Shown piece by piece: positions 5,032 to 58,716 of a stretch of 64,000 nucleotides of DNA. The notes beneath the pieces were generated by a model. That model was not told the origin of the DNA. It saw nothing but the letters and a program-made list of their open reading frames with translations, and did no database searches. Source of the stretch: an uncultured Bacilli bacterium (GTDB taxonomy: Bacteria; Bacillota_I; Bacilli_A; RF39; UBA660). Where the stretch lies: contig CANRDF010000002.1 of the NCBI GenBank assembly GCA_947629255.1, positions 44-64,043 on the forward strand, given 5' to 3'. The translations under genes and the position numbers were made by a program. How positions within the stretch are numbered: position 1 is the first letter of the stretch; the number at the start of each line of letters is the position of its first letter.

Positions 5032-5649
5032 TTATCTTAATTTCCCTATTTGGCTTTCAAAATCTTCTTGCATACAAACGAATGAGCCACTTACCACTCG
5101 ATCGGCATAAGGACGAACCAAAAAAACCGTTTGATCGTTAATTCCTCCATCTATTGAAATTTCAAAATTTTTTTTTAATTTATCAATCTCTTGTAATTTA
5201 GGAATTACACTTTCCATAAATTCCTGTCCACCTTTTCCAGGATGAACCGTCATAACTAAAACAACATCAATATTACTTAAAAAAGGAAGAATCTTTTCAA
5301 TCGATGTTTCAGGATTAATAGATAAACCTACTGGAATGGAATAAGATTTGATAAGAGATATAAACTCATTTACATTCGGTATTTCTACAGGAATCGTGAT
5401 ACAACACGGGTTTAGGCTAGTTAAATATTCAATCTCTTCTTTTGGATTCTCTATCATTAAATGAATATCAATGGGCTTTGTAACATCTTGTAAATCTTTC
5501 ATGATTTCTTGAATCTCATAATTTCTTTCTCCACAAAAAATGCCATCAATCAAATCGACATGGATATAATCTGCCGAAGATTCATTAATTTTTTGAATCG
5601 TTTCTTTTTTTCCATATATACTTTTTAAATAAGACACCGCTACTTTCAT
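5032..5649 (-). CDS. rpe: ribulose-phosphate 3-epimerase
   Basis: 205 aa with motifs HVDLIDG, IDIHLMIENP, HPGKGGQEF and IDGGIN. Conserved position after rsgA, as in other Firmicutes. Confidence 0.8.
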   Translation of the reverse strand: MKVAVSYLKSIYGKKETIQKINESSADYIHVDLIDGIFCGERNYEIQEIMKDLQDVTKPIDIHLMIENPKEEIEYLTSLNPCCITIPVEIPNVNEFISLIKSYSIPVGLSINPETSIEKILPFLSNIDVVLVMTVHPGKGGQEFMESVIPKLQEIDKLKKNFEISIDGGINDQTVFLVRPYADRVVSGSFVCMQEDFESQIGKLR

Positions 5650-8401: not shown

Positions 8402-9142
8402 CTATTCACACTCACTCTTCATATCTAATAAGGCAATGGATATATTATCATTTCCGCCTCTTGCATTACATTTACGTACTAATAATTTCACTTTATCTTC
8501 GATGCTTCCTTCTTCATCTAACACTTTTTCAATTTGTTCTATGGTAAGCATGCCTGTTAGACCATCACTGCAAAGAAGGACACCATCCACATCTCTTTCG
8601 ACATCAAAGATATCCATATCAATTTGTTCCCCTGCCCCAAGCGCTTTCATCAGCACATTTTTCTTTGGATGATTTTTCGCTTCTTCTTCAGTTAAGTTTC
8701 CAGCTTCTACTAGTAAACTTACTAAAGTATGGTCTTTTGTTACTTTATGTAATTTGTTGTTTTTCCAAACAAAACCTGAAGAATCCCCAATATTTCCAAA
8801 AATTAAATAATCTTTTGTCACAAGTGCTAGAACTAACGTCGTTCCAAGTCCTGTCGAGTCATGATGATTGTTTGCATATTCTAAAATAGACGCATTAATC
8901 TCACTTACGTTATCATTTAACCAATTTACAGCATCTAATTTTGAACCAATACTGCTCATGGATGAAAAACGTTTTCCAAAATGTGTTACTGCTAGACTCG
9001 AAGCCACTTCTCCTGCACGATGTCCCCCCATTCCATCTGCGACAAGAAGTAAAAGCTCGCCACTTCCATTTTTGACAATCGTGACAGAATCTTCGTTATG
9101 ACTTCTTACTTTTCCAGCATCGGTTAAGTAATAAGACTTCAC
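8402..9142 (-). CDS. stp: PP2C-family Ser/Thr phosphatase (Stp/PrpC)
   Basis: 246 aa with motifs TDAGKVRSHNED, VADGMGGH and GGNDNIS. Immediately upstream of prkC. Confidence 0.9.
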   Translation of the reverse strand: MKSYYLTDAGKVRSHNEDSVTIVKNGSGELLLLVADGMGGHRAGEVASSLAVTHFGKRFSSMSSIGSKLDAVNWLNDNVSEINASILEYANNHHDSTGLGTTLVLALVTKDYLIFGNIGDSSGFVWKNNKLHKVTKDHTLVSLLVEAGNLTEEEAKNHPKKNVLMKALGAGEQIDMDIFDVERDVDGVLLCSDGLTGMLTIEQIEKVLDEEGSIEDKVKLLVRKCNARGGNDNISIALLDMKSECE

Positions 9143-42738: not shown

Positions 42739-44253
42739 TTATGCTTTTCTATTATATTTTTTATAATGTTTATGCACAAAATCGTTTTTTAGTGAATTTG
42801 AATGATTGCATTTCTTTATGACTTTTGTTTTAATTATTTTTGCTTTTAATCTGTATATCCCATTTTGTAATAATGGATAAATTAAATCAATAACAATTGA
42901 TAAATCAATAATCATACATAAATAAAGAGAAGGATAAAAGTACCTTATTTCAAAAGATTGAGTATTAATTAAGTATGACCCATAATAAAATAATGATAAC
43001 ATAAATATTAACAAATATTTTTTTCTGTTTTCATCGTTCTTAAACCATTTTATCAAAATTAAAATCAAAGATAATAAAAATGTTACCCATGGTCTTAATG
43101 TGATAAGCGAAAATGCTTTTACCACTTTTTCATATAAATCAACAAATTGATGCCGTCTTTTGCCATCATTAAAATTATATTTTTCCATTATATTATATCG
43201 ATCATAATCATACTCAACATATCTAAGAGGCTGAATAATTCCTAAATTATATCCTATAAACTTTTGCTTTGCTATCAAAAAAAATTTTGTTTCTTTAAAA
43301 ATAAGATTTAAATATTTTGACAAAATAATTTGAAAATTTCCCTTATTAGAAATATTAGAGAATGTTATTTTTGTGTTTAACAAAGGTACAACTGATTGAT
43401 ACGAAGATTTTTCTATAGCAATCTTAGTAGCCGATTCTCCCCAAACATCATCAAGATACTCTATGTATTCTTTTTGAGTCGTTTCATCCATTTCTTGAAT
43501 AGTGCTTACAACTTCCCATACAAATCCTGCAGATACGCTTGATAAAGTTGTTATATTTAGAATCCACGAAAAAATTGGAACTAAGATAAAACCTAATATC
43601 AAAGATGCTATGCTAGCTATTTTTTTTGTTTTATTCATTTTCATTTTTAATACATAAAATACTAAAACAGGTATTATTGTAAAAGCATTGGCTCGATACC
43701 CGAAAATTGTAAACGAAAAAAATACTAGTAAAATAAATTCTATAACATTATCAAGTTTTTGTTTTTTTATATTTATCTTATCAAGCAATAAAACATAAAA
43801 AATTATACTAGCCACGCACAAAACTGAAGCTTCATAGTAAATTGATACACAAAATATTAATGGATTTAATCCCCAAAAGACATACTGAATTTTTTTATAA
43901 TGCTTTGCAAGTCTTTTTATTAACAAAAAAGTTGCCAAGAAAAATAGTGTAGCTTGCAAAAATGTATATGTTGCTATATTTCCAGTTAAAAATTTACAAA
44001 TTGCCATATAAAACGAAGGTATTACAGTTAGCCAACTACTAGCTACTATTGAATTTCTCTGCCCCATGAAAAATTTTCTCATGCAATCCAGAATTGTATC
44101 CGCAAAAGAAACACGTGTGTACGAATCTGAATACCATACTCCTGGATATGTAATAAATGTGCAAAACAAAGCCATTAGAAAACTTATAATGATTATATTC
44201 ATATTTTCTTTTAATTTTTGTATATAATAACTTTTTTTTAAATTACTTTTCAT
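42739..44253 (-). CDS. polytopic membrane protein (GT-C-like glycosyltransferase candidate)
   Basis: 504 aa, about 10 TM in the N-terminal half, a soluble loop, then C-terminal TMs. The first loop carries WYSDSY. Function is inferred only from topology and neighbourhood. Confidence 0.5.
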   Translation of the reverse strand: MKSNLKKSYYIQKLKENMNIIIISFLMALFCTFITYPGVWYSDSYTRVSFADTILDCMRKFFMGQRNSIVASSWLTVIPSFYMAICKFLTGNIATYTFLQATLFFLATFLLIKRLAKHYKKIQYVFWGLNPLIFCVSIYYEASVLCVASIIFYVLLLDKINIKKQKLDNVIEFILLVFFSFTIFGYRANAFTIIPVLVFYVLKMKMNKTKKIASIASLILGFILVPIFSWILNITTLSSVSAGFVWEVVSTIQEMDETTQKEYIEYLDDVWGESATKIAIEKSSYQSVVPLLNTKITFSNISNKGNFQIILSKYLNLIFKETKFFLIAKQKFIGYNLGIIQPLRYVEYDYDRYNIMEKYNFNDGKRRHQFVDLYEKVVKAFSLITLRPWVTFLLSLILILIKWFKNDENRKKYLLIFMLSLFYYGSYLINTQSFEIRYFYPSLYLCMIIDLSIVIDLIYPLLQNGIYRLKAKIIKTKVIKKCNHSNSLKNDFVHKHYKKYNRKA

Positions 44254-44390: not shown

Positions 44391-44633
44391 TTAAATATTT
44401 GGAGTATTTTTACCACGCCAAACTGTAACTTGTGTAATAATCATTTTGTCATCAGGACTTAATTTTTGAGACATCGCTCCAAATATTTCTGGTAAATCTT
44501 GAGTACTAAATACTTGATATGTATTATCAAATAATTTTGTATTGTATTGAAATGATTCTACATAATCAATAGCATCTTTCTTACCATTACAATCATTATT
44601 AGCAAATTGAAATGTAACAATATAACTATTCAT
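44391..44633 (-). CDS. small hypothetical protein (tandem paralog 2)
   Basis: 80 aa and roughly 75% identical by eye to the 81-aa neighbour. No family recognised. Confidence 0.5.
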   Translation of the reverse strand: MNSYIVTFQFANNDCNGKKDAIDYVESFQYNTKLFDNTYQVFSTQDLPEIFGAMSQKLSPDDKMIITQVTVWRGKNTPNI

Positions 44634-44669: not shown

Positions 44670-44915
44670 TTAAATATTTGGAATATTTTTACCTCTAAAA
44701 GAAATAGAGTGTGCAATAATCATTTTATCATCAGGACTTAATTTTTCAGATATAGCTCCAAATATTTCTGGTAAATCTTGGTTACTAAATACTTGATATG
44801 TATTATCAAATAACTTTGTATTGTATTGGAATGACTCTACATAATCAATTGCTTCTTTTTTACAGTTACAATCTTTAGTATCTGAAAATTTAAAGGTTAT
44901 AATATAACTATTCAT
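44670..44915 (-). CDS. small hypothetical protein (tandem paralog 1)
   Basis: 81 aa, MNSYIITFKFSD...YVESFQYNTKLFDNTYQVF. GGAGG-like RBS (gggaggaag) upstream. Confidence 0.5.
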   Translation of the reverse strand: MNSYIITFKFSDTKDCNCKKEAIDYVESFQYNTKLFDNTYQVFSNQDLPEIFGAISEKLSPDDKMIIAHSISFRGKNIPNI

Positions 44916-45142: not shown

Positions 45143-45451
45143 TTATTTTCTATTTTCTTCTTTTAACTTTTCAATTGCTGTTATTGATAATCCTGTGACT
45201 TCAGATATATAACTTATATCAGATTTTCCTAACATTGCTTTTGCAATTTCCATTCTTTCTTCTTCAACTGCTTCTTCTTTAGCAAGAGAGATTCTAGTAT
45301 TCGTAAGACGCTCTTTGTCTTCCTCTTCAGAAACTGTCCTTATAAATGTTCCATCACTATTTAATATATACATTTTCTGATCAAACTCCTTTACTAATTC
45401 ATCTTTCTTCGATAACTCCACAAGTTCTTCTTCACTTGCTCCTAACATCAC
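45143..45451 (-). pseudogene. C-terminal fragment of an Rpn/PDDEXK_2 (YhgA-like) recombination-promoting nuclease gene
   Basis: Carries only the C-terminal tail (..EIAKAMLGK..ISEVTGLSITAIEKLKEE), typical of this family. About 190 nt are near-identical to 53449-53770. Confidence 0.6.
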
Positions 45452-45486: not shown

Positions 45487-46343
45487 TTAATTTTGATTTA
45501 ACTTTTTTTGTAACTTTCTAATTTTTCCTTTTGTTACACCTGTAACTTTAGAAATTTTGTCTATTCCAAGTTCTGGAGTTTCCTCTAACATAGACTTAGC
45601 TATTTCAATGTTACGTTTCTTAGCAGCTTTTTCTTGGGCAATCTCAATTCTTGCATTCATAAGTAACTCTTGATCTCTTTCTTCAGATATTGTTCTTGTA
45701 AATGTATTATCACTATTTAATACAAACATTTTCTCATCAAACTCCTTTACTAGTTCATCTTGTTTAGATAATTCCATTAATTCTTTTTCATTTGCACTTA
45801 ACATCACTAAATGGATATTCTCTTTCTCGCCTTGTATGTTCTTATGATAACACTCTTTTTTAATTGTTGCAAGATTGATGGTTATAATTTTATAATTTTT
45901 TACATATGGTTTTAATGTTTTCGGATTTAAAAGTTGATAAACTTTTTTTTGCTCTCCTTTTTCTTCTCTAATAAAATTGAAGTCTATATTATGTGTACAA
46001 ATTCGCTCTTGGTATCATATTTATTTCCTCTTTTTACTTTCTCTGAATAATAAGAATTAAAGAAACAAAGGTTACGAACTCTTGTGGCTTCACCAAAAGA
46101 TGTATTTACTTCCACATGAGTATATTTTCCATCTTTTGTTTTAAGTAAGACATCTAAAACTTTCACTCTTTCTTTTTTATTACGAACAGGAAGTTCCGTT
46201 GGATAAAACTTTAAGACTTTCACTTCTTGTTCTAAAACTTCCTAAGCACGCGCATTCATAAATTTCGTATTATCAGGATTTACAAAAACGGTTTTAAAGA
46301 TTCGATCAATTTTAGCAGTTAAATAAGCGTCTTTTTTTGCCAT
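45487..46343 (-). pseudogene. Rpn/PDDEXK_2-family nuclease/putative transposase, disrupted
   Basis: Reads MAKKDAYLTAKIDRIFKTVFVNPDNTKFMNARA, then TAG (about 46244), then EVLEQEVKVLKFYPTEL...LDVLLKTKDGKYTHVEVN. A frameshift follows at about 45984 and the C-terminal tail runs to 45487. Confidence 0.7.
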
Positions 46344-46782: not shown

Positions 46783-47076
46783 CTATTCTTCAATATATTT
46801 ATTATCTAATAAATACTTTATATACTCTTCACAACTCATTGTACAATTCATATATCTTTCAAAATCATCTTTTTCTAACCTGATTTGTTTCATCATCGTT
46901 TTTAAAAGTCCATCTGGTATATCTTTTTGAGAACCACGACTAATTTTAGTATTAATTGCTGTCTTTTTTCCATTTCTATATATGTAAAAATATTCATGGT
47001 CTCCAGGAACCTCAGAAAATCCTTTCTTTAAAAGGATTCGTTTCACATCCTTTTTAGTTCTTGGCATTTTGTTCAA
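46783..47076 (-). CDS. HicA-like toxin-fold protein with C-terminal extension
   Basis: 97 aa. MPRTKKDVKRILLKKGFSEVPGDHEYF...DIPDGLLKTMMKQIRL parallels the HicA pattern (..eviklLek.GF......GSH........diP.gtl..ilkq.gl). Confidence 0.5.
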   Translation of the reverse strand: MNKMPRTKKDVKRILLKKGFSEVPGDHEYFYIYRNGKKTAINTKISRGSQKDIPDGLLKTMMKQIRLEKDDFERYMNCTMSCEEYIKYLLDNKYIEE

Positions 47077-47512
47077 ATAAAGACAGCAATTTATATTTTA
47101 ATTTTTGAGCATTGGTATCCAAATCACAATCGTTTTCAAAAACATAACTATGATATTGGAATTTCAATTCACATAGTAAATTGTTTTCTGCATCATTTTG
47201 AGTTTTGCCATAAACATACACATTATATTCTTCATTAGAATAGTAAAATCCATCTTCATCTGAACTTATAACAAATTCTATTGATTTTGAAAGTCTCACC
47301 ATTTTGTCTTGATCCACATCATATAATTCTATAAATGATTTTTGATATTCTGATTTTTCCATAATATAATTTTCTCCTATTATATTATTATTATCATTTC
47401 TTATCATTTTATTACTTTTAAAAATAAATTTTTTAATAAAATCATTTAATCTATTTTCTTGTTTAATATTTTCTATATAAGGAGTAGAAACAGTTGTATT
47501 TATATTTATCAT
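47054..47512 (-). CDS. hypothetical protein, possible HicB-like antitoxin
   Basis: 152 aa with a 23-nt overlap onto the HicA-like gene. The segment FVISSDEDGFYYSNEEYNVYVYGKTQNDAENNL resembles the HicB N-terminal fold pattern. Weak call. Confidence 0.35.
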   Translation of the reverse strand: MININTTVSTPYIENIKQENRLNDFIKKFIFKSNKMIRNDNNNIIGENYIMEKSEYQKSFIELYDVDQDKMVRLSKSIEFVISSDEDGFYYSNEEYNVYVYGKTQNDAENNLLCELKFQYHSYVFENDCDLDTNAQKLKYKLLSLFEQNAKN

Positions 47513-48252: not shown

Positions 48253-49131
48253 TTAATCTTTAATTTCTAAATAATAATTCTTAAAATCTTCATGATAATA
48301 ACTTGTAACATTAAAATGCGTTTCTTTATGAAGTTCTATTGCGGTTATTAAATGTCTTATAAATAGTGCTATTAAATCTGCCGAATCATGCTCTAAAGTT
48401 AACAATAAACTAGATACATTAAACCTTTGAGTTTCTATATCATTTATTTTTACTGTAAAGGTTGGATAGCAATATGTTTTGATACTTGTAAAGCTATCTA
48501 TTGTTTCTTTATCTAAAAAAGTATTATTTTTAAAATCTTCTTCTACCATTTGATATGTGTAACATCCCTTTTTTAATATTAAAATGAAATTATGCCTAAA
48601 AGAATTATCAATCCCTTTATAAATATCATCAAAATCAACTTTTCTTAAATCAAATTGAACATTTTTACAAATCAAAAAACTAAAAATAGAATTGTATTCT
48701 TTTATCCTAGCTTTCGAATCTTCAGTTTGACACATCTTTTTTATATTTGATAATTTTCTTAATGCGACTTTAAATTCACTTTTCGTTAATCCAGATTTTA
48801 TTTCGCCTACTGCAAAAACACATTCTGATGGAAAAAATTGTAAAAAGTTATCTTTAATAAATTTAGGAGTATTTTTATCATAAACTACTATATCACATTG
48901 TGTACTTATTTCGTTTTTTGGATTTACTATAAATCCATCTCCAACAGCCTTATTGTCATCAATAATGAACTCAAGAAGATGTTTTGTACATTTTTCCCTA
49001 TAATGTCCAAATTCTGCTGGATGAATTAACTTTTTACCATTTTTAAAAATTTTTTCGGACTGTTCTGTAAAAACATATTCAAATGTTTTTAATTGATCAT
49101 AAAAAAGTTCTTTAATTATTTCATGTTTCAT
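48253..49131 (-). CDS. DUF6602-like PD-(D/E)XK nuclease-fold protein
   Basis: 292 aa. The pattern GHYREKCTKHLLEFI...GDGFIVNPKNEISTQCDIVVYD...FPSECVFAVGEIKSGLTKSEF shows a D...E-x-K core and matches the DUF6602 pattern as I recall it. Confidence 0.6.
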   Translation of the reverse strand: MKHEIIKELFYDQLKTFEYVFTEQSEKIFKNGKKLIHPAEFGHYREKCTKHLLEFIIDDNKAVGDGFIVNPKNEISTQCDIVVYDKNTPKFIKDNFLQFFPSECVFAVGEIKSGLTKSEFKVALRKLSNIKKMCQTEDSKARIKEYNSIFSFLICKNVQFDLRKVDFDDIYKGIDNSFRHNFILILKKGCYTYQMVEEDFKNNTFLDKETIDSFTSIKTYCYPTFTVKINDIETQRFNVSSLLLTLEHDSADLIALFIRHLITAIELHKETHFNVTSYYHEDFKNYYLEIKD

Positions 49132-49227
49132 CTTACTACCAACTTCTTTCTTTTGATAGTTAGATTAGCATAGATTTTTAGGAAACACAACAGAAAAAAT
49201 AACCATGCAAGGTTTACTTTCCCCCCT

Positions 49228-50325
49228 TTAATTTTCAAAATGTCCTCCCCTATATAATTTTTCAATATTATGGGCTTCTTGAAGTTCTTTATTTGTTGCA
49301 TTAGAAAGAGATACGACTCTTTTAGGACTTACAATAAATGTGCAATCAGGTCGTGTTATTTTATTACTCATAAGATAAGTATTATGGGTTGATAAAATAG
49401 TCTGTAAATTTGGAGTAGAGTTTAATTCTTTTACAACACTTTCTGCTAAATCAAAATGATAGTTAACATCAAACTCATCGATAAACAAAAACTTTACATT
49501 TGCTTGTTCTAGCCAAATCCTCCAACTGTAAAATAACCATAAATCATTCGTTCCTGTAGAAATCAAAGTAAAAAAAGGCACAACTGCATCTTTAAATCTT
49601 ATTCCTATTATATGATGATTACCTAAATTCATATCTTCTAAATGATAATTGATATGATTATTTTTTAAGAAAGTTTCAAAATTTTTTAATTTATTCTTTC
49701 TTAAAATAATATCATTTAATTCATTGTTGTGATATTTAATTCCAATAGATTCATCTTTTTTAATCCATAACATAGAATTTACAAAATCCATAAGTAAATG
49801 AATAGGATGATTTTTTATTTTAGGAAGTCTACTTGCTAAATAATTAATCATAGACATATTATCAAAATATTCCCAATTTAAAGATTCTGTATCTTCTATT
49901 TTAATAAATAAATGTTCTAAATCTTGAAAATGATATTCTAAAACTGTTTCATGATTAACAATCAATTTCTCATACACAGGGACAGTATCATAATCTTTTT
50001 TATAATATATGTATTCGATCATCATGTCATCAAATTGAAAAGTATATTCAAATTCTGCATAATCACGTTTAATTTCTAAATTCAAATAATTTTGATAATA
50101 TTTTCCTACATTTTGATATTTGTTAGTTAAAGTTAAAACAATATCAAAAATAGCAAATCCTAAATTAGATTTACCTGATGCATTCTTACCAAATAGTATG
50201 CTATTTTTTACTATTTTATTTTGAATTAAATTTTTATTATATTGATAATCATTTGTATTTAATAAATTCAAAGTTACTTTCTTTGAAAATCCTTTAAAAC
50301 CTAAAACAGAAAATTTTGTTAACAT
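49228..50325 (-). CDS. ABC-type AAA_21/AAA_15-like ATPase (defence-associated), paralog 2
   Basis: 365 aa. Walker A GKNASGKSN, Walker B FLFIDEFDVNYH, and STHN. Mosaic paralog of 56179-57285. Confidence 0.8.
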   Translation of the reverse strand: MLTKFSVLGFKGFSKKVTLNLLNTNDYQYNKNLIQNKIVKNSILFGKNASGKSNLGFAIFDIVLTLTNKYQNVGKYYQNYLNLEIKRDYAEFEYTFQFDDMMIEYIYYKKDYDTVPVYEKLIVNHETVLEYHFQDLEHLFIKIEDTESLNWEYFDNMSMINYLASRLPKIKNHPIHLLMDFVNSMLWIKKDESIGIKYHNNELNDIILRKNKLKNFETFLKNNHINYHLEDMNLGNHHIIGIRFKDAVVPFFTLISTGTNDLWLFYSWRIWLEQANVKFLFIDEFDVNYHFDLAESVVKELNSTPNLQTILSTHNTYLMSNKITRPDCTFIVSPKRVVSLSNATNKELQEAHNIEKLYRGGHFEN

Positions 50326-50365
50326 ATACTTTCCTTTCTTCTTTTGAACTTTTTTGCTTTATTCG

Positions 50366-51409
50366 TTATAACCATCTATTTTCTATTTCTAAATTAGTTC
50401 TTTTTGAAGTACCAGTTAAAATTTCTATATCGCGAACGGTAAAACCCATCTCTTGTAATTTTTTTAAATCTAAATTCTTATATTCAGGATGAATAGTCTG
50501 AAAAAGAATTCTTAAATAATCTGATTTGTTATTGGAATTACTAAAAGCAATGGATGACTTTATAATATTTTTTAATTCTCCTGGATATGGAATAGGATTT
50601 AAAAGTTTTAAAATTTTATGAAATAATCTTTGATTTTGTTCTATTTCATTATTTTTAGAAAAATCTTTTAATAAGAGATCTGCAATTTCTATTAAATCTT
50701 CTTCTGAATAACGATTAAAATGAATCACTTTATCAAATCTTCGAATCAATGCTTTATCTAACTTTTGATACATATTCGTTGTCGCAATAAATAAAATACT
50801 ATCTAATAATGAATTTTCTAATTCTTTCAAAAACATGGAAGTCGCTCTTCCCATTTCTCTTAAATCATTATCATTGATTCTATCTAATGCTAAAGCATCT
50901 ATTTCATCAAATAAAACAATAATTTTTTCAGGATGAGGGAGTGTTTTTAATTCTTCAAATAATGCAGATATATTTTTTAAAGTTTGTCCAAGTTTACTGT
51001 CAATAATAGAATCAAATCGAACTGTGTACAAAACTCTATCTAAAATTCTTGCTAAATGTTTGGCTGTTTCTGTTTTTCCAGTTCCTGGAGCCCCTTCAAA
51101 TAAAAATTTATTGACACCACATTTTTTATGAATTGCATTAATAATACCAATAACATCGTTTTTAATTTCTTCCGGCAAAGGTAGTAAATTATTAGAAGGT
51201 TCTACTTTTTGATAAAATGTCAATTTTAAATCTTCTCTTTGAGGCACAAAAGTATTTTCATCTGATAATAAAGCTAAAATATATTGAGATAGCTCAGCAT
51301 CTCCATTTAATTCAAAATCTTTAGCAATCATATAAGCTTCACTTCTAAATGATTCATCTGAACCTTCTACATGATATCTTATTAAATTAATCACATTTCT
51401 TTTTCTCAC
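50366..51409 (-). CDS. classical AAA+ ATPase with N-terminal helical domain
   Basis: Walker A GAPGTGKTETAKHLA, Walker B VLFDEIDAL, and sensor/arginine region ATTNMYQKLDKALIRRFD. Start placed at GTG 51409 with SD TGAGGTG 6 nt upstream; the ORF track extends to 51457. Confidence 0.75.
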   Translation of the reverse strand: MRKRNVINLIRYHVEGSDESFRSEAYMIAKDFELNGDAELSQYILALLSDENTFVPQREDLKLTFYQKVEPSNNLLPLPEEIKNDVIGIINAIHKKCGVNKFLFEGAPGTGKTETAKHLARILDRVLYTVRFDSIIDSKLGQTLKNISALFEELKTLPHPEKIIVLFDEIDALALDRINDNDLREMGRATSMFLKELENSLLDSILFIATTNMYQKLDKALIRRFDKVIHFNRYSEEDLIEIADLLLKDFSKNNEIEQNQRLFHKILKLLNPIPYPGELKNIIKSSIAFSNSNNKSDYLRILFQTIHPEYKNLDLKKLQEMGFTVRDIEILTGTSKRTNLEIENRWL

Positions 51410-51428
51410 CTTTTTCACCTCATATTTT

Positions 51429-52313
51429 TTAGTATAAATAATATTGAATACTATCACTAAAATGTTCTTTTGATACTTTTAAAAACTCACAAGCTTTCTC
51501 TCTTTCAATCTCTCCATATGCTTCTAATTTATAAACCATTTTACGGAATTGATATGGTTCTTCTAATGGTATTACACTATCATCATATTTTTCTTTATTT
51601 AAATGTAAATGCACTAATAAATGACCTACTGAAAAGATAGGTGTTATTTGAAGTTCTCTTAAACGAATGATAATAGCATAGTAATTTATTTGAAATTCTT
51701 TTTTGAATGCTTCAATTTCACGAAAATTTAGATTGGCTCTGTAATCTCCGAATTCGTTTATCATTGCTCTTCTAGGCATTAGCAATGCATTTGCAAAACG
51801 CTGGCAAAGTTCTTCTTGATTTAATTCTTTGTTTTCAATATTAAGTATTAAGTGTCCTAATTCATGGGCAAGAGTAAGTTTTTGCTTTCTTCCATCTAAT
51901 GTTTTATTTATTAAAACAATAAATGGAATTCCTTCCACTACTTCACTAAATGATTCTATACCTTTAAATCTATTTTCCATATTTTTTATTTGAATAATAG
52001 CTATTCCCTTTTTTTCTAAAAGAAAAATTAAATTAGAAATAGGAAGTTTTTGGGAAACATTTATTTCATTTCTAAATTTAATTGCGCTATTCTCTGCATC
52101 TTCTAAACTTTTACAAGAATATTTTTTTAATTTATATATTTTTTTATTCGATAATTTTAAAACCTCCAAATATTTAACAATCTCAATTTGAATCAGTTCT
52201 TTTAAAAGTTTTAAATCTTGTTGTTTTATTTTTTTTCTTTTACGTAACGAATCAAAAGTTAATTTAGGAATTTCTAACTTCATTATCTCATTTAAATTAT
52301 TCATTTTAACCAT
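51429..52313 (-). CDS. ImmA/IrrE-family (M78) zinc metallopeptidase-like protein
   Basis: 294 aa with HELGHLIL (HExxH) followed by E..CQRFANALLMP, the typical ImmA/IrrE signature. I saw no HTH domain. Confidence 0.75.
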   Translation of the reverse strand: MVKMNNLNEIMKLEIPKLTFDSLRKRKKIKQQDLKLLKELIQIEIVKYLEVLKLSNKKIYKLKKYSCKSLEDAENSAIKFRNEINVSQKLPISNLIFLLEKKGIAIIQIKNMENRFKGIESFSEVVEGIPFIVLINKTLDGRKQKLTLAHELGHLILNIENKELNQEELCQRFANALLMPRRAMINEFGDYRANLNFREIEAFKKEFQINYYAIIIRLRELQITPIFSVGHLLVHLHLNKEKYDDSVIPLEEPYQFRKMVYKLEAYGEIEREKACEFLKVSKEHFSDSIQYYLY

Positions 52314-52422
52314 CTCTTTCTATTACTTTTTTATCACAAAAAGAAACATTTGTAAAGATTAAATTGATGTTTAATATAATTTAAATGCAAAAAAAGAAAT
52401 AGATTTATCATTCCCTATTTCC

Positions 52423-53274
52423 TTATTTCATTTCAATTTCTTTTACGTCAGCATACTCATAGTTTAGTGCATTACTACTAGTAACTACACTTTCACCAAG
52501 TTCATTTTCTAAATCTTTTCTTGCATTCCCTGCAATCTTTCCTCCACGTCTTGCTACTTCAATATTTTCGTTTAAACCTTTCGGATTTTTCTTTTTAGCA
52601 ATTTCTCTTGTTGCTATTTCACCTAAATCAGCTAAGGCTACTTCAACATCAGACATATTATCTCTTAGCGATTCTTTCCTAAGCCCTTTAAATGATTTAT
52701 ACTCCTTGGCGGTCATACCTGACCATTCTTTATATATTTCATTTGTTAAAATTGCATATTCTTTGGATTCAGTGATTCCACCATCTTTCCATACATCTGT
52801 AAGTTGTCTCCTATCCTGAATACTCTTCATTCGTTTTAATATCCATTTTTCATCATAGCCCTTAGTTCTATATAAGTCTATTGCTCTTTGGGCTGCTATA
52901 GAAGGATCAAATGTTTCATCAATTCTTTCACTTCCTAGTTTTGCTAGCCATTGTTTTATAGGTTCTGCATTTTTTGAAGGAATGGATTCAATAATTCTAA
53001 ACATTCCTTCTATATCTACTACATCAGTTAATCGATATTTACCATCACTAGCCTTAAGTTTCAACTGGTGACAATTTGTCACCGTTTCATTTCCTTCATC
53101 TTTGAGACGTTGTTTTAATTTGTTCCAATATTTTCTACCATCTTTACTTTCCGATACGACCCCTACAATGTCAACAACACTAATAAAGTACTTTTCTTTC
53201 TCCTTATCCCACACTGTTCTAATTGTTTCATTGTTAAATAGTTTGTTTACTAATTGCATTTTATCTTGATTCAT
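52423..53274 (-). CDS. Bro-N-domain protein (antirepressor/DinD-like)
   Basis: N-terminal Bro-N-like segment (ETIRTVWDKEKEKYFISVVDIVGVVSES..GRKYWNKLKQRL). Start placed at ATG 53274 (MNQDK) after AAGGAGAG; the ORF track starts at 53295. Confidence 0.65.
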   Translation of the reverse strand: MNQDKMQLVNKLFNNETIRTVWDKEKEKYFISVVDIVGVVSESKDGRKYWNKLKQRLKDEGNETVTNCHQLKLKASDGKYRLTDVVDIEGMFRIIESIPSKNAEPIKQWLAKLGSERIDETFDPSIAAQRAIDLYRTKGYDEKWILKRMKSIQDRRQLTDVWKDGGITESKEYAILTNEIYKEWSGMTAKEYKSFKGLRKESLRDNMSDVEVALADLGEIATREIAKKKNPKGLNENIEVARRGGKIAGNARKDLENELGESVVTSSNALNYEYADVKEIEMK

Positions 53275-53448
53275 AATCCATCTCTCCTTAATCATTTGTT
53301 TCTATTTTAAAACTTTAACTTTATTTTTTTTCAGCATTTCATTTTAACCATCTCTTTTCTGTTTTTGTTTTATCACAAAAAGAAACATTTGTAAAGATTA
53401 AATTGATGTTTAAAATAATTTTTTTACTTATTAAAAAAAATAGATTTT

Positions 53449-53859
53449 TTATTTTCTATTTTCTTCTTTTAACTTTTCAATTGCTGTTATTGATAATCCT
53501 GTAATTTTTGATATTTTTTCTATTCCAAGTTCTGGACTTTCTTCAAGCATTGATTTTGCAATTCCCATTTTTTCTTTGGCTTTAGCTTCTTCAGCTGCTT
53601 CTTCTTTAGCAAGAGAGATTCTAGTATTCGTAAGACGTTCTTTGTCTTCTTCTTCAGAAACTGTCCTTATAAATGTTCCATCACTATTTAATATATACAT
53701 TTTCTGATCAAACTCCTTTACTAATTCATCTTTCTTGGATAACTCCACAAGTTCTTCTTCACTTGCTCCTAACATCACTAGATGAATATTCTCTTTGTCG
53801 CCTTGTATGTTCTTATCATACCATTCTTTTTTGACATTTTCAATATTGATTGTAATCAT
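53449..53859 (-). pseudogene. C-terminal fragment of an Rpn/PDDEXK_2-family gene (third copy)
   Basis: ITINIENVKKEWYDKNIQGDKENIHLVMLGASEEEL... parallels residues of the 45487-46343 pseudogene. The PD-(D/E)XK N-terminal half is missing. Confidence 0.6.
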
Positions 53860-53875
53860 TCTAACTGTGTACCCT

Positions 53876-53903
53876 TAATAAAAAATGTAATAATTATACA
53901 TTT
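53876..53903 (-). terminator. rho-independent terminator after the 485-aa gene
   Basis: Stem AAATGTA/TACATTT (53883-53889 / 53897-53903) followed on the minus strand by TTTTATT. Confidence 0.5.
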
Positions 53904-53942
53904 AAATAATTTAATATTCTCTTTTATACTTCAACATTTTAG

Positions 53943-55400
53943 CTACATTAGAAGCCTAGCGGCCTGTAGTTCTTTTATTATCTGATGATACATGTCAATT
54001 ACATATTTTCGAAATATCTTAACATCTGTATTTCTTAACTTGGTATTAGTAGCTCTTACTAATGGATAATCAAATGAACCATATTCAACCATTTGACTTT
54101 TTAATGAGTTTATAATACTTGTGCCCGTAAAAGCATACTTTTCAACATCATATAAACTACAAACTTTGATATGATTTATAATCCATTTATACAATCTATC
54201 AGATGTGTTTATCTTTAATTTCTCTGCCACCTTTTTATATATTAATTCCCTCTTAATATAAGATTCCTCCAATAAAACCACAATTCCAAAGCAATTATCA
54301 CGATTAAAATTAGTTTTATCATCATTTTCAAAAAAATCATATGATCTCTTAAAATCTAAATAAATTTGTTTGTATAATTGAACTACTGCATTGCTTATCT
54401 TGTTTATCTCATCTAAAATTGATTTTTCTTTCATACATCTAGTTTTAGAATAAGGAACCATTGATTTACATTCAAAAAATAGATATTCATTATTAATTCT
54501 ACACATGACATCTGAAGTTTTTAATTGATTTTTATTTTTTATATATTCTTTTTCTAGTATGATTTCAGTAAATAAATTTGATTTTAGTAAAATATCATAT
54601 AAATAAGCTTCCAAAACATCTTTGCCAAATAAAGTTCTGATATCATTTTGATTATCAGTAATTCTATATAGTAACGAATCAGTCACTGCTCTTGTTAAAC
54701 AATGCGGTAAAGGTAAATAAATTTTTTGACCATACTTAATAAATGGATAAATATCTGAAGGTCTAACACAATATAGATAATCTTCTATATTTTCTGCAAA
54801 CAAATCAATTTCTTTTTTAAATTCTTCTCGTGATATTGTTAATAGTTTTACCACAGTAGCATATTTCAAAAGTATATACTCTATTATTTTATAATTTAAT
54901 GAAACTTTTGAAGCAAAAAGAAAATTTAATATAATTCCAAATTCTAAAACAGATTTGTATTCTATTCCAAATTTTTTATAAAATTCATTTTTCATACTAA
55001 TTTTAGGACAAGTATAATTAAAAAAATAGTTGTATCTAAAATATTTATATATATCATAAGATTGGCAATCATATTGTGTTGAGCCAAATGCAATCAATAC
55101 ATAATCCACAAATTCTGATGTCTCACTTTTGCTAAGCAAAAAAGGATGGTGATAATTTCTTATGCAATTAATTATTTCGGAAAAATTATTTATATTCTGA
55201 CCTTTGAAATCTTTGAATTGATATTCATCCGCTTTAACCGAAAACATCAAAAAAGTTTCCAATTCCCATGGCATTGGTTGATTTTTATTGATTTTCAGAC
55301 AGTTAAAATCTATAAGTTGTAAAGAATAATACATCAAAATTCTCATTTTTTCATCAAATGAATATCTTTTTAAAATAACGGGCAATTTTTTATAATCCAT
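53943..55400 (-). CDS. hypothetical 485-aa protein with a possible C-terminal PD-(D/E)XK core
   Basis: Third gene of the ATPase-RloB operon, RBS AAGAGGT. The segment SDVMCRINNEYLFFECKS fits D-x12-E-x-K. No family recognised. Confidence 0.55.
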   Translation of the reverse strand: MDYKKLPVILKRYSFDEKMRILMYYSLQLIDFNCLKINKNQPMPWELETFLMFSVKADEYQFKDFKGQNINNFSEIINCIRNYHHPFLLSKSETSEFVDYVLIAFGSTQYDCQSYDIYKYFRYNYFFNYTCPKISMKNEFYKKFGIEYKSVLEFGIILNFLFASKVSLNYKIIEYILLKYATVVKLLTISREEFKKEIDLFAENIEDYLYCVRPSDIYPFIKYGQKIYLPLPHCLTRAVTDSLLYRITDNQNDIRTLFGKDVLEAYLYDILLKSNLFTEIILEKEYIKNKNQLKTSDVMCRINNEYLFFECKSMVPYSKTRCMKEKSILDEINKISNAVVQLYKQIYLDFKRSYDFFENDDKTNFNRDNCFGIVVLLEESYIKRELIYKKVAEKLKINTSDRLYKWIINHIKVCSLYDVEKYAFTGTSIINSLKSQMVEYGSFDYPLVRATNTKLRNTDVKIFRKYVIDMYHQIIKELQAARLLM

Positions 55401-55417
55401 TTTTACCTCTTAGTTCA

Positions 55418-56182
55418 TTAAATTTGCATATTTGCTTGTCCAACAGTTTTTCGAAAAAATTTATCATTAAAATATTCTATTGGCCATAAACAAAAAGTAT
55501 TTATAATGCTAACTGTCCCTTCTCTAAGTTTGTTTTTCATATATTTCAACAATTTTTCTTGAGAAAAATTCATTTTGTATTCTTCTTTTGATGTACTTAT
55601 ATCACAATTCAATAAATATTCATATTTATTCATCATCTGCTTCATTATAATTATGTATTGTTTTCTATTCATTTTTGAAAGATCACCAATACAAGAATAC
55701 TTATCAATATATCTTTTATACCCGTTTTTATGACATCGACTTATCAAAAATTCATAAGAATTAAAATCACTATCTGGAATGCTTTTAAAATGTTTAAAAG
55801 ATTCAAACATAGGATAATTTATATAAATCTTTCCATGGTTTGTTTCATCATCAAAAATTTGTATCATTTCTTGAACTTTAGATATAGAAAAGCCTTTATC
55901 TTGAGGATCTAGATCGAAGACCAAATAAACTTCTGGAAATTTTTTAGAAGACAAGATATTATATAATTCCATATTGTTGTCCTTAAGTGCTTTTTCCCTT
56001 ACTAATTCAACAATCTCTAAATCTGGATCCTCTTTTATTTCTTTATATAATGTATATATATTTGTACAATATGGTACACAGTAAAAATCATTTGTTTCTT
56101 TTTTTAAAAATAATCTTTGTATCACATCAAATAATTGTTTTTCCCCATTTTTACCCTCTACAATAAAGAGGATATTTTTCAT
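55418..56182 (-). CDS. RloB-like (AbiLii-like, Toprim-related) protein
   Basis: 254 aa. N-terminal ILFIVEGKNGEKQLF, then VYLVFDLDPQD and INYPMFESF, parallel the RloB pattern (CEGxxTE..YF / D.D / SNPCFE.W). 4-nt overlap with the upstream ATPase. Confidence 0.6.
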   Translation of the reverse strand: MKNILFIVEGKNGEKQLFDVIQRLFLKKETNDFYCVPYCTNIYTLYKEIKEDPDLEIVELVREKALKDNNMELYNILSSKKFPEVYLVFDLDPQDKGFSISKVQEMIQIFDDETNHGKIYINYPMFESFKHFKSIPDSDFNSYEFLISRCHKNGYKRYIDKYSCIGDLSKMNRKQYIIIMKQMMNKYEYLLNCDISTSKEEYKMNFSQEKLLKYMKNKLREGTVSIINTFCLWPIEYFNDKFFRKTVGQANMQI

Positions 56183-57285
56183 GCTATAAAATGACCTCCT
56201 CTATATAATTTTTCAATATTATGTGCTTCTCTAAGTTCTTTATCGGTTGCGTTAGAAAGCGACACGACTCTTTTAGGACTCACAATAAATGTACAATCAG
56301 GTCGGGTAATTTTATTACTCATAAGATAAGTATTATGTGTTGATAAAATAGTCTGTAAATTTGGAGTAGAGTTTAATTCTTTTACAACACTTTCTGCTAA
56401 ATCAAAATGATAGTTAGCATCAAACTCATCGATAAACAAAAACTTTATATTTGCTTGTTCTAATTGAATCTTCCAACTATAAAATAGCCATAAATCATTC
56501 GTTCCTGTAGAAATCAAAGTGAAAAAAGGCACAACTTCTTCTCCAAACCTTACTCCTATTACATGACGATTGCCTAAATCCATATCTTCTAAATGATAGT
56601 TAATTCCATTGGACTTCAAAAAATTTTCAAAATCTTTTAATTTATTATTTTTTAAAATAATATCATTTAATTCATCTATTTGATTTTTAATTCCTATAAA
56701 ATCTCTACCTTCGACACTTTTAAACCATAACATAGAATTTACAAAATCCATAAGTAAATGAATAGGATGATTTTCTGTTTTAGGAAGTCTACTTGCTAAA
56801 TAATTAATCATAGACATATTATCAAAATATTCCCAATTTAAAGATTCTGTGCCTTCTATTTTAATAAATAAATGTTCTAAATCTTGAAAATGATATTCTA
56901 AAACTGTTTCATGATTAACAATCAATTTCTCATACACAGGGACAGTATCATAATCTTTTTTATAATATATGTATTCGATCATCATGTCATCAAATTGAAA
57001 AGTATATTCAAATTCTGCATAATCACGTTTAATTTCTAAATTCAAATAATTTTGATAATATTTTTCTACATTTCGGTATTTGTTAGTTAAAGTTAAAACA
57101 ATATCAAAAATAGCAAATCCTAAATTAGATTTTCCCGATGCATTATCTCCAAATACCAATCCGTTTTTTACTATTTTGTTTTGAGTTAAATTCATATTAT
57201 ATTGATAATCATTAGTATTTGATAAATCCAATGTTACTTTTTTTGAAAATCCTTTAAAACCTATAACTGAAAATTTAGCTAACAT
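56179..57285 (-). CDS. ABC-type AAA_21/AAA_15-like ATPase (AbiLi/AriA-like), paralog 1
   Basis: 368 aa with Walker A GDNASGKSN, Walker B FLFIDEFDANYH, and STHN. Confidence 0.8.
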   Translation of the reverse strand: MLAKFSVIGFKGFSKKVTLDLSNTNDYQYNMNLTQNKIVKNGLVFGDNASGKSNLGFAIFDIVLTLTNKYRNVEKYYQNYLNLEIKRDYAEFEYTFQFDDMMIEYIYYKKDYDTVPVYEKLIVNHETVLEYHFQDLEHLFIKIEGTESLNWEYFDNMSMINYLASRLPKTENHPIHLLMDFVNSMLWFKSVEGRDFIGIKNQIDELNDIILKNNKLKDFENFLKSNGINYHLEDMDLGNRHVIGVRFGEEVVPFFTLISTGTNDLWLFYSWKIQLEQANIKFLFIDEFDANYHFDLAESVVKELNSTPNLQTILSTHNTYLMSNKITRPDCTFIVSPKRVVSLSNATDKELREAHNIEKLYRGGHFIA

Positions 57286-57417
57286 ATTCTTTTCCTCTTT
57301 TCTGGCTTTATCTTATCATTTTTACAATTACTAGTCAAGTTTTCCGTAAAAAAACTACGGATGATATGTTTTTTCATTTAATGAAATTACTAAAAAAGAA
57401 GCCTTCCCTTAGACTTC

Positions 57418-58716
57418 TTACTTTTCAACAACTTTTTTCTCAATCTTAGATTTGCCACCCATATAAGGTCTTAGTTTTTCAGGAATATTGATACTTCCAT
57501 CTTCACAAAGATTATTCTCTAGGAAAGCAATGAGCATTCTAGGAGGTGCAATAACCGTGTTGTTTAGGGTATGGGCAAGCACATTCTCCCCTTTATCATT
57601 TTTATATTTGATAGATAATCTTCTTGCTTGAGCATCGGTTAAGTTAGAACAAGAACAAACTTCAAAATATTTTTGTTGTCTTGGACTCCATGCTTCAATA
57701 TCACAAGAACGATACTTAAGATCTGCTAAATCTCCTGAGCAACAAACGAGTTTACGAACAGGAATATTTAAAGACAAGAATAACTCTACAGAATAATGCC
57801 ACATCTTGTCATACCAAGATTCACTTTCTTCTGGTTTACAGATGACAATCATTTCTTGTTTTTCAAATTGATGAATTCGGTATACTCCTCTTTCTTCAAT
57901 TCCATGAGAACCAATTTCTTTACGGAAACATGGAGAATAAGATGTCATGGTAATTGGTAAATCACTTTCTTTTAAGATTTGGTCTTTAAATTTAGCAATC
58001 ATAGAATGTTCACTTGTTCCAATTAAGTAAAGGTCTTCTCCTTCTATTTTATACATCATGTTTTCTTTTTCTTCAAAAGACATAACACCATTCACGGCAT
58101 CTCCATGAATCATATAAGGAGGAATACAATAGGTAAATCCTTTGTCAATCATAAAGTCTCTGGCATAAGCAAGAACAGCTGAATGAAGTCTTGCAATATC
58201 GCCCATTAAATAATAGAAACCAGTGCCACTTACTCTACCAGCAGCATCTTTATCAATTCCATTAAAACTTGCCATGATATCTGCATGATAGGGAATTTCA
58301 AAATTTGGAACCTTTGGCTCGCCAAAGTGTTCTTCATCCACGTTTTGAGTGTCGTTTTCCCCAATCGGAACATCAGGCGCAATCATATTCGGAATGCTCA
58401 TCATCTTTGATGTAATTTCTTCATTCAAATTCTTTTCTTCTTCTTCAATAGAAACTAATTCTTGATTAATTTCTGTTACACGAGCCTTCTTTTCTTCAGC
58501 AAGGTCTTTCTTTTGTTCTCTCATCAAAGCTCCGATTTCATTACTTACTTGATTTCTTTCACTTCTTAGAGTATCGCCTTTTACCTTTAATTCTCTTACT
58601 TTTTCATCTAATTCAATCACTTCATCAACTAAATGAAGTTTATGGTCTTGAAATTTCTTTCGAATATTTTCTTTTACTAATTCAGGATTTTCTCTTACAA
58701 ATTTTCTATCTAACAT
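57418..58716 (-). CDS. serS: seryl-tRNA synthetase
   Basis: Canonical N-terminus MLDRKFVRENPELV, and class II motifs (..FRKEIGSHG..RGVYRIHQFEKQE.., ..GSINIPEKLRPYMGG). Start placed at 58716; the ORF track extends to 58740. Confidence 0.9.
   Translation of the reverse strand: MLDRKFVRENPELVKENIRKKFQDHKLHLVDEVIELDEKVRELKVKGDTLRSERNQVSNEIGALMREQKKDLAEEKKARVTEINQELVSIEEEEKNLNEEITSKMMSIPNMIAPDVPIGENDTQNVDEEHFGEPKVPNFEIPYHADIMASFNGIDKDAAGRVSGTGFYYLMGDIARLHSAVLAYARDFMIDKGFTYCIPPYMIHGDAVNGVMSFEEKENMMYKIEGEDLYLIGTSEHSMIAKFKDQILKESDLPITMTSYSPCFRKEIGSHGIEERGVYRIHQFEKQEMIVICKPEESESWYDKMWHYSVELFLSLNIPVRKLVCCSGDLADLKYRSCDIEAWSPRQQKYFEVCSCSNLTDAQARRLSIKYKNDKGENVLAHTLNNTVIAPPRMLIAFLENNLCEDGSINIPEKLRPYMGGKSKIEKKVVEK

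Follow-up and report, generated by a model that had tools for sequence, protein, structure and literature searches.

Two ATPase paralogs of a bacterial defence island: a canonical PDC-M12 pair and a partner-less copy that appears to evolve in concert with it by gene conversion

Within a stretch of 64,000 nucleotides (nt) from a contig of an uncultured Bacilli bacterium, in the following called the window, a defence island contains two paralogous ABC ATPase genes, A and B, which lie 7 kb apart. All genes between 47.5 and 59.2 kb are encoded on the minus strand. An initial annotation of this DNA had taken the two ATPases as mosaic copies of one sensor or motor that is wired to different effectors. 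We assigned the window proteins to families by PADLOC and Pfam profile scans, and the genes on which the argument turns are the following (aa, amino acids; ORF, open reading frame).

48253–49131, minus strand: DUF6602 PD-(D/E)xK nuclease of the NucC-like fold family; Pfam DUF6602 with 78.2 bits (cut-off 27), residues 32–133; PADLOC PD_DExK E = 3e-28 and NucC E = 2.5e-17
49132–49227, minus strand: conserved 96-nt spacer from ATPase A to the next gene, with few mismatches to the closest relative (contig L001)
49228–50325, minus strand: ATPase A, 365 aa, partner-less paralog of B at the usual place of IetS; PADLOC PDC-M12A E = 3.5e-110, residues 1–364 of 365
50366–51457, minus strand: IetA-type AAA+ ATPase without IetS; PADLOC IetA E = 5e-38, residues 21–351; the true start is likely about 16 codons inside the ORF
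51429–52313, minus strand: M78 (ImmA/IrrE) metallopeptidase, first gene of the M78–IetA–ATPase A cluster; Pfam Peptidase_M78; PADLOC RmrA E = 8e-25 and capP E = 1.5e-13
55418–56182, minus strand: RloB-like, putative Toprim partner of B (PDC-M12B, AbiLii-like); PADLOC PDC-M12B E = 5e-55; its start overlaps the stop of ATPase B by 4 nt (56179–56182)
56179–57285, minus strand: ATPase B, 368 aa, canonical Rad50/SMC-like ABC ATPase (AAA_21), PDC-M12A or AbiLi-like; PDC-M12A E = 8.2e-123, residues 1–366 of 368

Both ATPase reading frames (365 and 368 aa) were confirmed at the annotated positions on the minus strand, and the neighbours that had been named for them are also correct, namely the M78 and AAA+ genes upstream of A, the DUF6602 gene downstream of A after the 96-nt spacer and the 4-nt overlap of ATPase B with the RloB-like gene. 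An independent assembly from another sample (L086) reproduces a 13.8-kb arrangement with 99.96% identity to the window; all sequences compared are short-read metagenome assemblies. Both copies contain the Walker A (GKNASGKS in one, GDNASGKS in the other), Walker B (FLFIDEFD) and H-loop (STHN) motifs, which are invariant across the family alignment, and both match the AbiLi profile of PADLOC (E-31 and E-34). Sequence-profile matches of the ATPase were furthermore obtained to AriA and PtuA. The AlphaFold2 (AF2) model of ATPase A has a predicted local distance difference test (pLDDT) value of 84 and shows a Rad50/SMC-like ABC head with a match to PtuA.

For the survey of ATPase homologues one genome per species was scanned, which yielded 80 loci with 36–47% identity, about 73 of them with enough downstream sequence to count the partner genes. 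An RloB-like gene follows the ATPase directly on the 3′ side in 68 of these about 73 loci (63 + 5), mostly overlapping the ATPase stop codon. No third gene recurs after the RloB-like gene in 45 loci. DUF6602 was found at none of the 80 ATPase loci, and homologues of M78, IetA and the 485-aa protein encoded downstream of the RloB-like gene are likewise absent near the ATPase in all 80, save for M78 and IetA in the window's own relative L001. The partner statistics thus identify PDC-M12 as a two-gene system and ATPase B together with the RloB-like gene as a standard member of it. Of the two partners that had been proposed for B, the RloB/Toprim-like protein holds up, and the 485-aa protein does not: we considered it as a third PDC-M12 component and rejected it, since it is encoded at 0 of 63 loci as judged by phmmer and no recurrent third gene is seen.

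The RloB-like protein shows the motifs FIVEGKNGE (EG) and FDLDPQD (DxD). Its matches to Pfam RloB (23.8 bits against a cut-off of 31.5) and to PADLOC AbiLii (E = 1.6e-5) are weak. The ratio of nonsynonymous to synonymous divergence (dN/dS) of its N-terminus is 0.12 between the window and the relative. In the metagenome of L001 a 1.75-kb contig (L005) contains the ortholog of ATPase B followed by the overlapping start of an RloB-like gene. Upstream of ATPase B we find

57310–57338, minus strand: promoter-like site TTGACT-17-TAAGAT, TG-extended, 5′ of ATPase B, from a consensus scan only

just after the terminator-like hairpin of serS at 57396–57419. Promoter and terminator scans were uninformative, the window DNA being AT-rich.

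Partner-less ATPase copies also occur elsewhere in the family, in L009, L019, L033, L067 and L069; the one of L033 lies within a type I restriction–modification (RM) locus, and the one of L009 is accompanied by a remnant of RloB. In L009 (4675–6890), from a related rabbit-gut Bacilli metagenome-assembled genome (MAG), the ATPase homologue is followed by a 93-aa RloB-like remnant and then by a different pair of AAA_21 and RloB-like genes, which from its sequence looks like a further example of decay and stacking of such systems.

The two paralogs of the window are 88% identical on the amino acid level and 91% on the nucleotide level. DNA homology extends from about 20 nt 5′ of the ATG, so that the ribosome-binding site is included, to two codons short of the stop codon, a point that in copy B coincides exactly with the start of the RloB-like gene. 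Along the gene the similarity is distributed unevenly (dS and dN, synonymous and nonsynonymous divergence).

Codons 1–60: aa identity 83%, dS 0.42
Codons 61–186: aa identity 96%, nt identity 98%, dS 0.03
Codons 187–262: aa identity 71%, dS 0.38, dN 0.17
Codons 263–290: dS 0.39
Codons 291–368: aa identity 95%, nt identity 91.5%, dS 0.33, dN 0.04

With a dS of 0.03 in codons 61–186 against about 0.4 around them, the anomaly is the near-identical block and not the centre of the gene. The two copies had been described as near-identical over about the first 185 and the last 110 residues. This applies to codons 61–186 and, on the protein level, to codons 291–368; codons 1–60, however, reach 83% only, and codons 291–368 have a dS of 0.33. 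The peptides given for the divergent centre had been reported correctly, as had the difference in the last two residues (EN and IA). Overall dN/dS between A and B is 0.27, and 0.12 in the C-terminal third.

The near-identical sequence is found in two gene-conversion tracts, outside of which the synonymous divergence between the copies amounts to about 0.33–0.42.

49765–50172, minus strand: gene-conversion tract 1 in copy A, gene nt 154–561; counterpart in copy B 56725–57132; 7 mismatches in 408 nt
49893–50104 in A and 56853–57064 in B, minus strand: 212-nt perfect run within tract 1, gene nt 222–433
49358–49511, minus strand: gene-conversion tract 2 in copy A, gene nt 824–977; counterpart in copy B 56309–56462; 3 mismatches in 154 nt

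When the columns of the A/B alignment were shuffled 20000 times, no shuffle (0/20000) reached the length of the perfect run, the maximum being 142. Other contigs of the same species break within the tracts, one (L087) inside tract 1 and four (L088–L091) inside tract 2, as is expected if the tracts are truly identical repeats.

The closest relative consists of the MAG contig L001 and four metagenome contigs. L001 is syntenic with window positions 53470–49124 (Bro-N, M78, IetA and ATPase genes) at 86–89.5% nt identity. We compared four genes, A and B of the window and their orthologs in this relative, C and D, respectively. A 9-nt indel and the C-terminal codons pair A with C and B with D, and the duplication is therefore older than the split of the lineages. 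The high-identity tracts, on the other hand, are specific to the genome: over nt 226–405 A and B are 100% identical, C and D only 93–96%. Over nt 541–630 the orthologs are closest to each other (A–C 0.93 and B–D 1.00, versus 0.85 for A–B and 0.80 for C–D). The amino acid sites of the four proteins fall into the following patterns.

A = C versus B = D (paralog-specific): 22 sites
A = B versus C = D (genome-specific): 9 sites
Private to C: 31 sites
Private to A: 13 sites
Private to B: 3 sites
Private to D: 2 sites

The orthologs B and D give a dN/dS of 0.07, A and C one of 0.26. In all five contigs of the relative C is frameshifted by a 1-nt deletion, and its private changes include the invariant positions W268L, I282M and E284D of Walker B. 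We also considered a recent duplication with subsequent local divergence and rejected it, since dS outside the tracts is about 0.35–0.4 and the orthology of A with C and of B with D places the duplication before the split.

Between L086 and the window there are six single-nucleotide polymorphisms (SNPs) over the 13.8 kb, five of them in ATPase B (L086 2056–2281) at nt 210, 212, 221, 434 and 435. These five are the mismatches nearest to the perfect run on either side, and all change the B allele to the A allele; D retains the allele of the window's B at four of the five sites. The switches stem either from conversion of B by A in the very recent past or from mis-phasing by SPAdes at low coverage. 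Conversion appears to be still going on between the canonical defence gene and the orphan copy.

The divergent central segment had been put forward as the candidate for partner or trigger specificity. In an alignment of 19 relatives the family varies most in the stretch between the ATPase lobes, residues 61–260, and the A/B differences are enriched in the variable alignment columns (p about 1e-4). A large part of the divergent centre is thus the portion of a variable region that was not converted. Twelve of the 22 fixed differences between A = C and B = D cluster in a short patch, which stays paralog-specific in both genomes despite conversion elsewhere.

49699–49764, minus strand: paralog-specific patch, residues 188–209 of A; counterpart in copy B 56650–56724 with 9 extra nt (3-aa indel)

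In this patch B and D keep a motif, MLW[FY]xx[VL]..G..[FY]xG..N, that A and C have lost. Among 113 relatives position 188 is aromatic in all 113, S190 is present in 82, V or L at position 191 in 106 and N198 in 81; in A and C the aromatic residue is changed to I, S to K, the hydrophobic residue to D and N to Y, and 3 aa are deleted. Copy A furthermore has the change R349Q at a position which is R in 112 of 112 relatives. Other partner-less members of the family retain the 188–201 motif, and its loss is therefore no general trait of orphan copies. In the AF2 model the patch forms a beta-hairpin and a loop in the insertion between the lobes and is the stretch of lowest confidence (pLDDT 58). The picture of a hypervariable specificity loop is only half true: residues 209–250 are variable throughout the family, but residues 188–201 are a conserved motif lost by A. 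Of the earlier proposal there remains a patch at residues 188–209 that is paralog-specific in two genomes; the centre is no special island of divergence, and it is A that departs from the conserved motif. There is some support for a paralog-specific function in part of the central segment, and by remote analogy to PARIS a role of the patch in oligomerisation or sensing would be more likely than one in the binding of an effector. In the uncharacterised ATPases of the PDC-M12/AbiL type this 22-residue patch that resists homogenisation is a target for mutagenesis.

Downstream of A the homology between window positions 49124–49227 and L001 positions 8414–8516 covers the spacer, continues for 8 nt into the next gene (ATGAAACA) and then ends. 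Past ATGAAACA the gene body encodes the DUF6602 protein in the window and in L001 an OLD-family ATPase–Toprim nuclease in its place, a swap at a fixed slot just after the shared start codon. A hairpin predicted in the 96-nt spacer is no canonical terminator. In a large protein database we found 19 homologues of the DUF6602 protein with at most 46% identity. Four genomic contexts of such homologues could be compared: a GmrSD/PLD/kinase-helicase island, a PDC-M37A/B locus (L095) where the homologue lies behind an AAA+ gene and the pair is unrelated to M78 and IetA of the window, a locus with a PDDEXK_2 gene and one with DLH/DUF5677. None of the four has an AAA_21 ATPase next to the DUF6602 homologue and the contexts share no neighbour, which is compatible with the protein acting alone. 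DUF6602 as a recurrent partner of AAA_21 ATPases was rejected on these counts (0/80 family loci, 0/4 DUF6602 contexts). The gene is judged to be an exchangeable single-gene cassette, whose independence we infer, and not the dedicated effector of A. A CBASS-like reading of the capP, TRIP13 and NucC matches was also rejected; the profile of the CD-NTase cyclase has no match among ten neighbouring proteins, and the stronger IetA and RmrA assignments explain the matches.

Upstream of A lies the IetA-type protein, which is 57–64% identical to more than 100 homologues, including ones that are paired with IetS, and reaches 106 bits with the NCBIfam IteA equivalog, below the cut-off of 510. Among 70 IetA homologues from a scan of metagenomes, 68 have a gene directly downstream whose product of about 745 aa matches IetS. 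Remnants of IetS, of a second RloB-like gene or of OLD were found nowhere in the window, and ATPase A thus occupies the place of IetS. The gap between IetA and A is 40 nt; in L001 the two genes overlap. No M78 gene lies upstream of other IetA homologues (0/60). The M78 protein matches the RmrA profile only from about profile position 94 on and has no helix-turn-helix (HTH) by Pfam, and the RmrT profile has no match among its neighbours. Its relatives were not found in viral contigs, and plasmid or phage matches are restricted to XRE-M78 proteins of about 30% identity with other partners, e.g., a PIN toxin. dN/dS between the window and L001 is 0.12 for M78 and 0.13 for IetA. In L001, however, M78 is split by an insert of about 349 nt (about 5180–5530) with 25-bp perfect terminal inverted repeats (ACCTCAATTCGCCTAAAGTGTTGCT), which looks like a miniature inverted-repeat transposable element (MITE). 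A 66-nt repeat with 92% identity is present at 52317–52382, upstream of the M78 operon, and at 53356–53421, upstream of the Bro-N/PDC-S13 gene; to judge from its position and sequence it may be a shared promoter or operator.

The explanation that we consider best, with a probability of roughly 0.6, is that the island holds one canonical PDC-M12 pair, ATPase B with the RloB-like protein, next to an old paralog A that has no partner and evolves in concert with B by gene conversion, while the DUF6602 gene is an independent cassette. It draws on what was observed: the genes present, the counts of their partners, the conversion tracts, the synteny with the relative and the decay seen there. In this reading ATPase B forms an ordinary two-gene system of the AbiL/RloAB type with the RloB-like protein, and by analogy to PARIS the putative Toprim nuclease would be held or regulated by the Rad50-like ABC ATPase as long as no infection is sensed. 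ATPase A would be an old paralog at the IetS position downstream of M78, with its own Toprim partner absent, and would probably be co-transcribed with M78 and IetA. The duplication would have come first, then the split of the lineages and then repeated conversion between A and B, which would have placed near-identical tracts on a background dS of about 0.35–0.4 and left the patch at residues 188–209 paralog-specific; nuclease genes (DUF6602 or OLD) would have been exchanged in the slot behind A. Several points weigh against this explanation. Only two lineages were comparable, the window's own and its closest relative L001, and short-read assembly could mis-phase paralogs near identical tracts. 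Copy A is not obviously dead, as its ORF is full-length, Walker A, Walker B and H-loop are intact and dN/dS against B is 0.12 in the C-terminal third. Moreover, the spacer and ATGAAACA are conserved across both lineages even though the gene body is swapped; given this conserved spacer the slot downstream of A could be a functional effector position, and all seven contigs (7/7) that carry this DUF6602 gene have the 3′ end of an A-type ATPase upstream.

If copy A were a decaying relic without own function after the loss of its Toprim partner, with ORF and likeness to B upheld only by occasional conversion, this would agree with the 13 lineage-specific aa changes of A compared with 3 in B and 2 in D, with R349Q at a position that is R in 112/112 relatives, with the loss of the family motif at residues 188–198 and with the sister lineage, where the ortholog is frameshifted and has 31 private changes including Walker B E284D and where M78 is broken too. 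We regard this as a real though doubtful possibility, because an unbroken ORF of 365 codons persists in an AT-rich genome, two assemblies have the same A sequence, dN/dS of A against B is 0.27 for the whole gene and 0.12 for its C-terminal third, and 8 of the 13 changes specific to A lie in residues 210–242, where D may instead have converted C. Alternatively, a new system of three genes may be made up of M78, the IetA-type AAA+ protein and ATPase A; the ABC ATPase would then stand in for IetS, and M78 would take the role of the protease. Both lineages have the three genes in synteny and at short distances (the 40-nt gap between IetA and A, an overlap in L001), A lies precisely at the IetS position with only about 20 nt of B-type leader, M78 and IetA are under purifying selection (dN/dS 0.12 and 0.13) and the 66-nt upstream element is common to the Bro-N gene. 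The arrangement is, however, restricted to this lineage (0/60 IetA loci with M78, and 0/80 ATPase loci with M78 and IetA beyond L001), and two of the three genes are broken in the sister lineage, so that such a system seems unlikely.

Two sensors could also share one effector, with A acting in trans with the RloB-like nuclease 6 kb away; conversion would keep the head lobes compatible and the different central insertion would widen the range of triggers. The N- and C-terminal lobes are indeed homogenised or under purifying selection and the paralog-specific patch lies in the insertion between them, and in PARIS the effector is at the head–head interface and the trigger at the central coiled-coil insertion (PMC10802264). 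Yet the A-type patch departs from the motif of 113 relatives in a way that looks more like loss than retuning, the sister lineage let its A-type copy decay with the B-type copy under strong constraint, and the PARIS analogy is remote, with an AriA match of only E about 1e-5; we consider this arrangement quite unlikely. Still fainter is the prospect that ATPase A is coupled to the nuclease slot downstream, with DUF6602 here and OLD in the relative, as one ATPase type with alternative effectors. The exact replacement of the cassette after the conserved spacer and ATGAAACA and the constant place of DUF6602 behind an A-type ATPase end in the contigs of this species would fit such a coupling. The rewiring proposed in the initial annotation nevertheless is not supported and A is probably not wired to a different nuclease: DUF6602 is present at 0/80 family loci and the ATPase in 0/4 DUF6602 contexts, OLD-family proteins bear an ATPase domain of their own, the ATPase is a pseudogene in precisely the lineage that has OLD, and a 96-nt gap instead of an overlap lies between A and the nuclease. 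There is likewise only a small chance that A is a working spare, either a second sensor that would share the RloB-like nuclease in trans or a silent or semi-silent donor cassette that would diversify sensor B by conversion. If A were such a donor, the five B-to-A switches of L086, between strains that are 99.96% identical, would be a snapshot of sensor diversification.

Provided that the island indeed combines a canonical pair, a converting orphan copy and an independent cassette, adjacency of an ATPase and a nuclease alone does not make a system, which calls for caution in the reading of defence islands, and a mosaic of paralogs can reflect gene conversion instead of functional divergence. 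The cluster of M78, IetA and ABC ATPase and the exact swap of DUF6602 and OLD would furthermore illustrate how defence genes are traded at fixed slots.

Between and around the two modules the island contains further genes.

52423–53295, minus strand: Bro-N domain protein (PDC-S13), between the modules; PADLOC PDC-S13 E = 8e-116, Pfam Bro-N; syntenic in L001
53943–55400, minus strand: 485-aa protein of an unannotated family, with a helical N-terminal part and a PD-(D/E)xK-like C-terminal part; matched by 429 representative clusters

No family was found for the 485-aa protein and for a 136-aa protein in four libraries (for the 485-aa protein Pfam, PADLOC, NCBIfam and PHROG). The AF2 model of the 485-aa protein has a pLDDT of 91, and weak fold matches of its C-terminal part are to the PD-(D/E)xK nucleases Can2, Card1, HamA and R.BspD6I. 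D297 and K312 are invariant. Judged by this model the protein is a candidate for an uncharacterised defence nuclease.

Three related small ORFs on the minus strand (45143–45451, 45487–45807 and 53449–53859) share 64–89% nt identity and resemble the C-terminal part of Rpn/PDDEXK_2 proteins (recombination-promoting nuclease/putative transposase). Each ATPase paralog has one set of them a few kb on its downstream side, which hints at an older, larger duplication or at a part in rearrangements of the island. In the variable segment downstream of the DUF6602 gene 46783–47076 and 47054–47512 (minus strand) overlap and encode a HicA-like protein of 94–97 aa and a 152-aa protein; the Pfam HicA_toxin match is weak, and by their sequences and arrangement the two are probably a toxin–antitoxin pair. 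At 44391–44633 and 44670–44915 (minus strand) there are tandem duplicate genes for proteins of 80 and 81 aa with 86% nt identity, which are also present in the sister lineage. A 504-aa ORF at 42739–44253 (minus strand) is missing from the stretch of L001 that is syntenic, is present in L088, which belongs to the window's species, and is another variable insertion of the island.

Among known systems the IetAS system, made up of the AAA+ protein IetA and the subtilisin-like protease IetS, resembles the cluster around A in that the AAA+ protein of the window is 57–64% identical to IetA proteins adjacent to IetS. It differs in that the window has no IetS, that M78 lies upstream and that ABC ATPase A is in the IetS position. 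As regards Rosmer (RmrT/RmrA), the M78 protein matches RmrA (E = 8e-25, from profile position about 94); Pfam gave no HTH in it, and RmrT had no match among its neighbours. The DUF6602 protein can be compared with Damona, which also has a DUF6602 domain and is reported among the anti-phage cassettes in chromosomal integrons of Vibrio; the publication that describes it is the only one we found to mention DUF6602. The two are likened by domain and by the secondary matches (Cas PD_DExK, CBASS small endonuclease/NucC), which that publication lists for Damona too, and not by sequence. As regards CBASS with NucC, the nuclease of the window matches the NucC profile (E = 2.5e-17), but none of ten neighbours matches a cyclase.

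PARIS, which consists of the ABC ATPase AriA and the Toprim nuclease AriB, has the same two-part logic as ATPase B with its partner and an ATPase of the same Rad50/SMC-like fold class. In PARIS the effector docks at the head–head interface of the ATPase, and the central coiled-coil insertion is where the trigger is bound (PMC10802264). The similarity to AriA chains is marginal, however (E about 1e-5 over about 100 residues), the ATPase of the window is about 100 residues shorter, its model is without the coiled-coil four-helix bundle, and the partner is RloB-like, with no AriB family among its PADLOC matches. The authors of the PARIS structure also describe AbiL and RloAB as structurally distinct from PARIS (PMC10802264).

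The closest counterparts are PDC-M12, AbiL (AbiLi/AbiLii) and RloAB of Campylobacter, which combine an ABC ATPase with a nuclease of the Toprim/OLD family and in which the order of ATPase and partner with overlapping stop and start codons is the family norm. As with RloAB, one relative of the ATPase (L033) is located in a type I RM locus. PDC-M12 is a computational candidate, and we found no publication that mentions it. Component A is present in both copies of the window, an adjacent component B only next to copy B; unlike PDC-M12 the island thus has a second ATPase without component B, and the two copies exchange sequence by conversion. A described case of concerted evolution between such an ATPase and a partner-less copy was not found for this family. 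The pattern itself resembles concerted evolution by gene conversion as otherwise known: near-identical tracts on a diverged background, which are genome-specific in two lineages, with the sites that are diagnostic for each paralog being kept.

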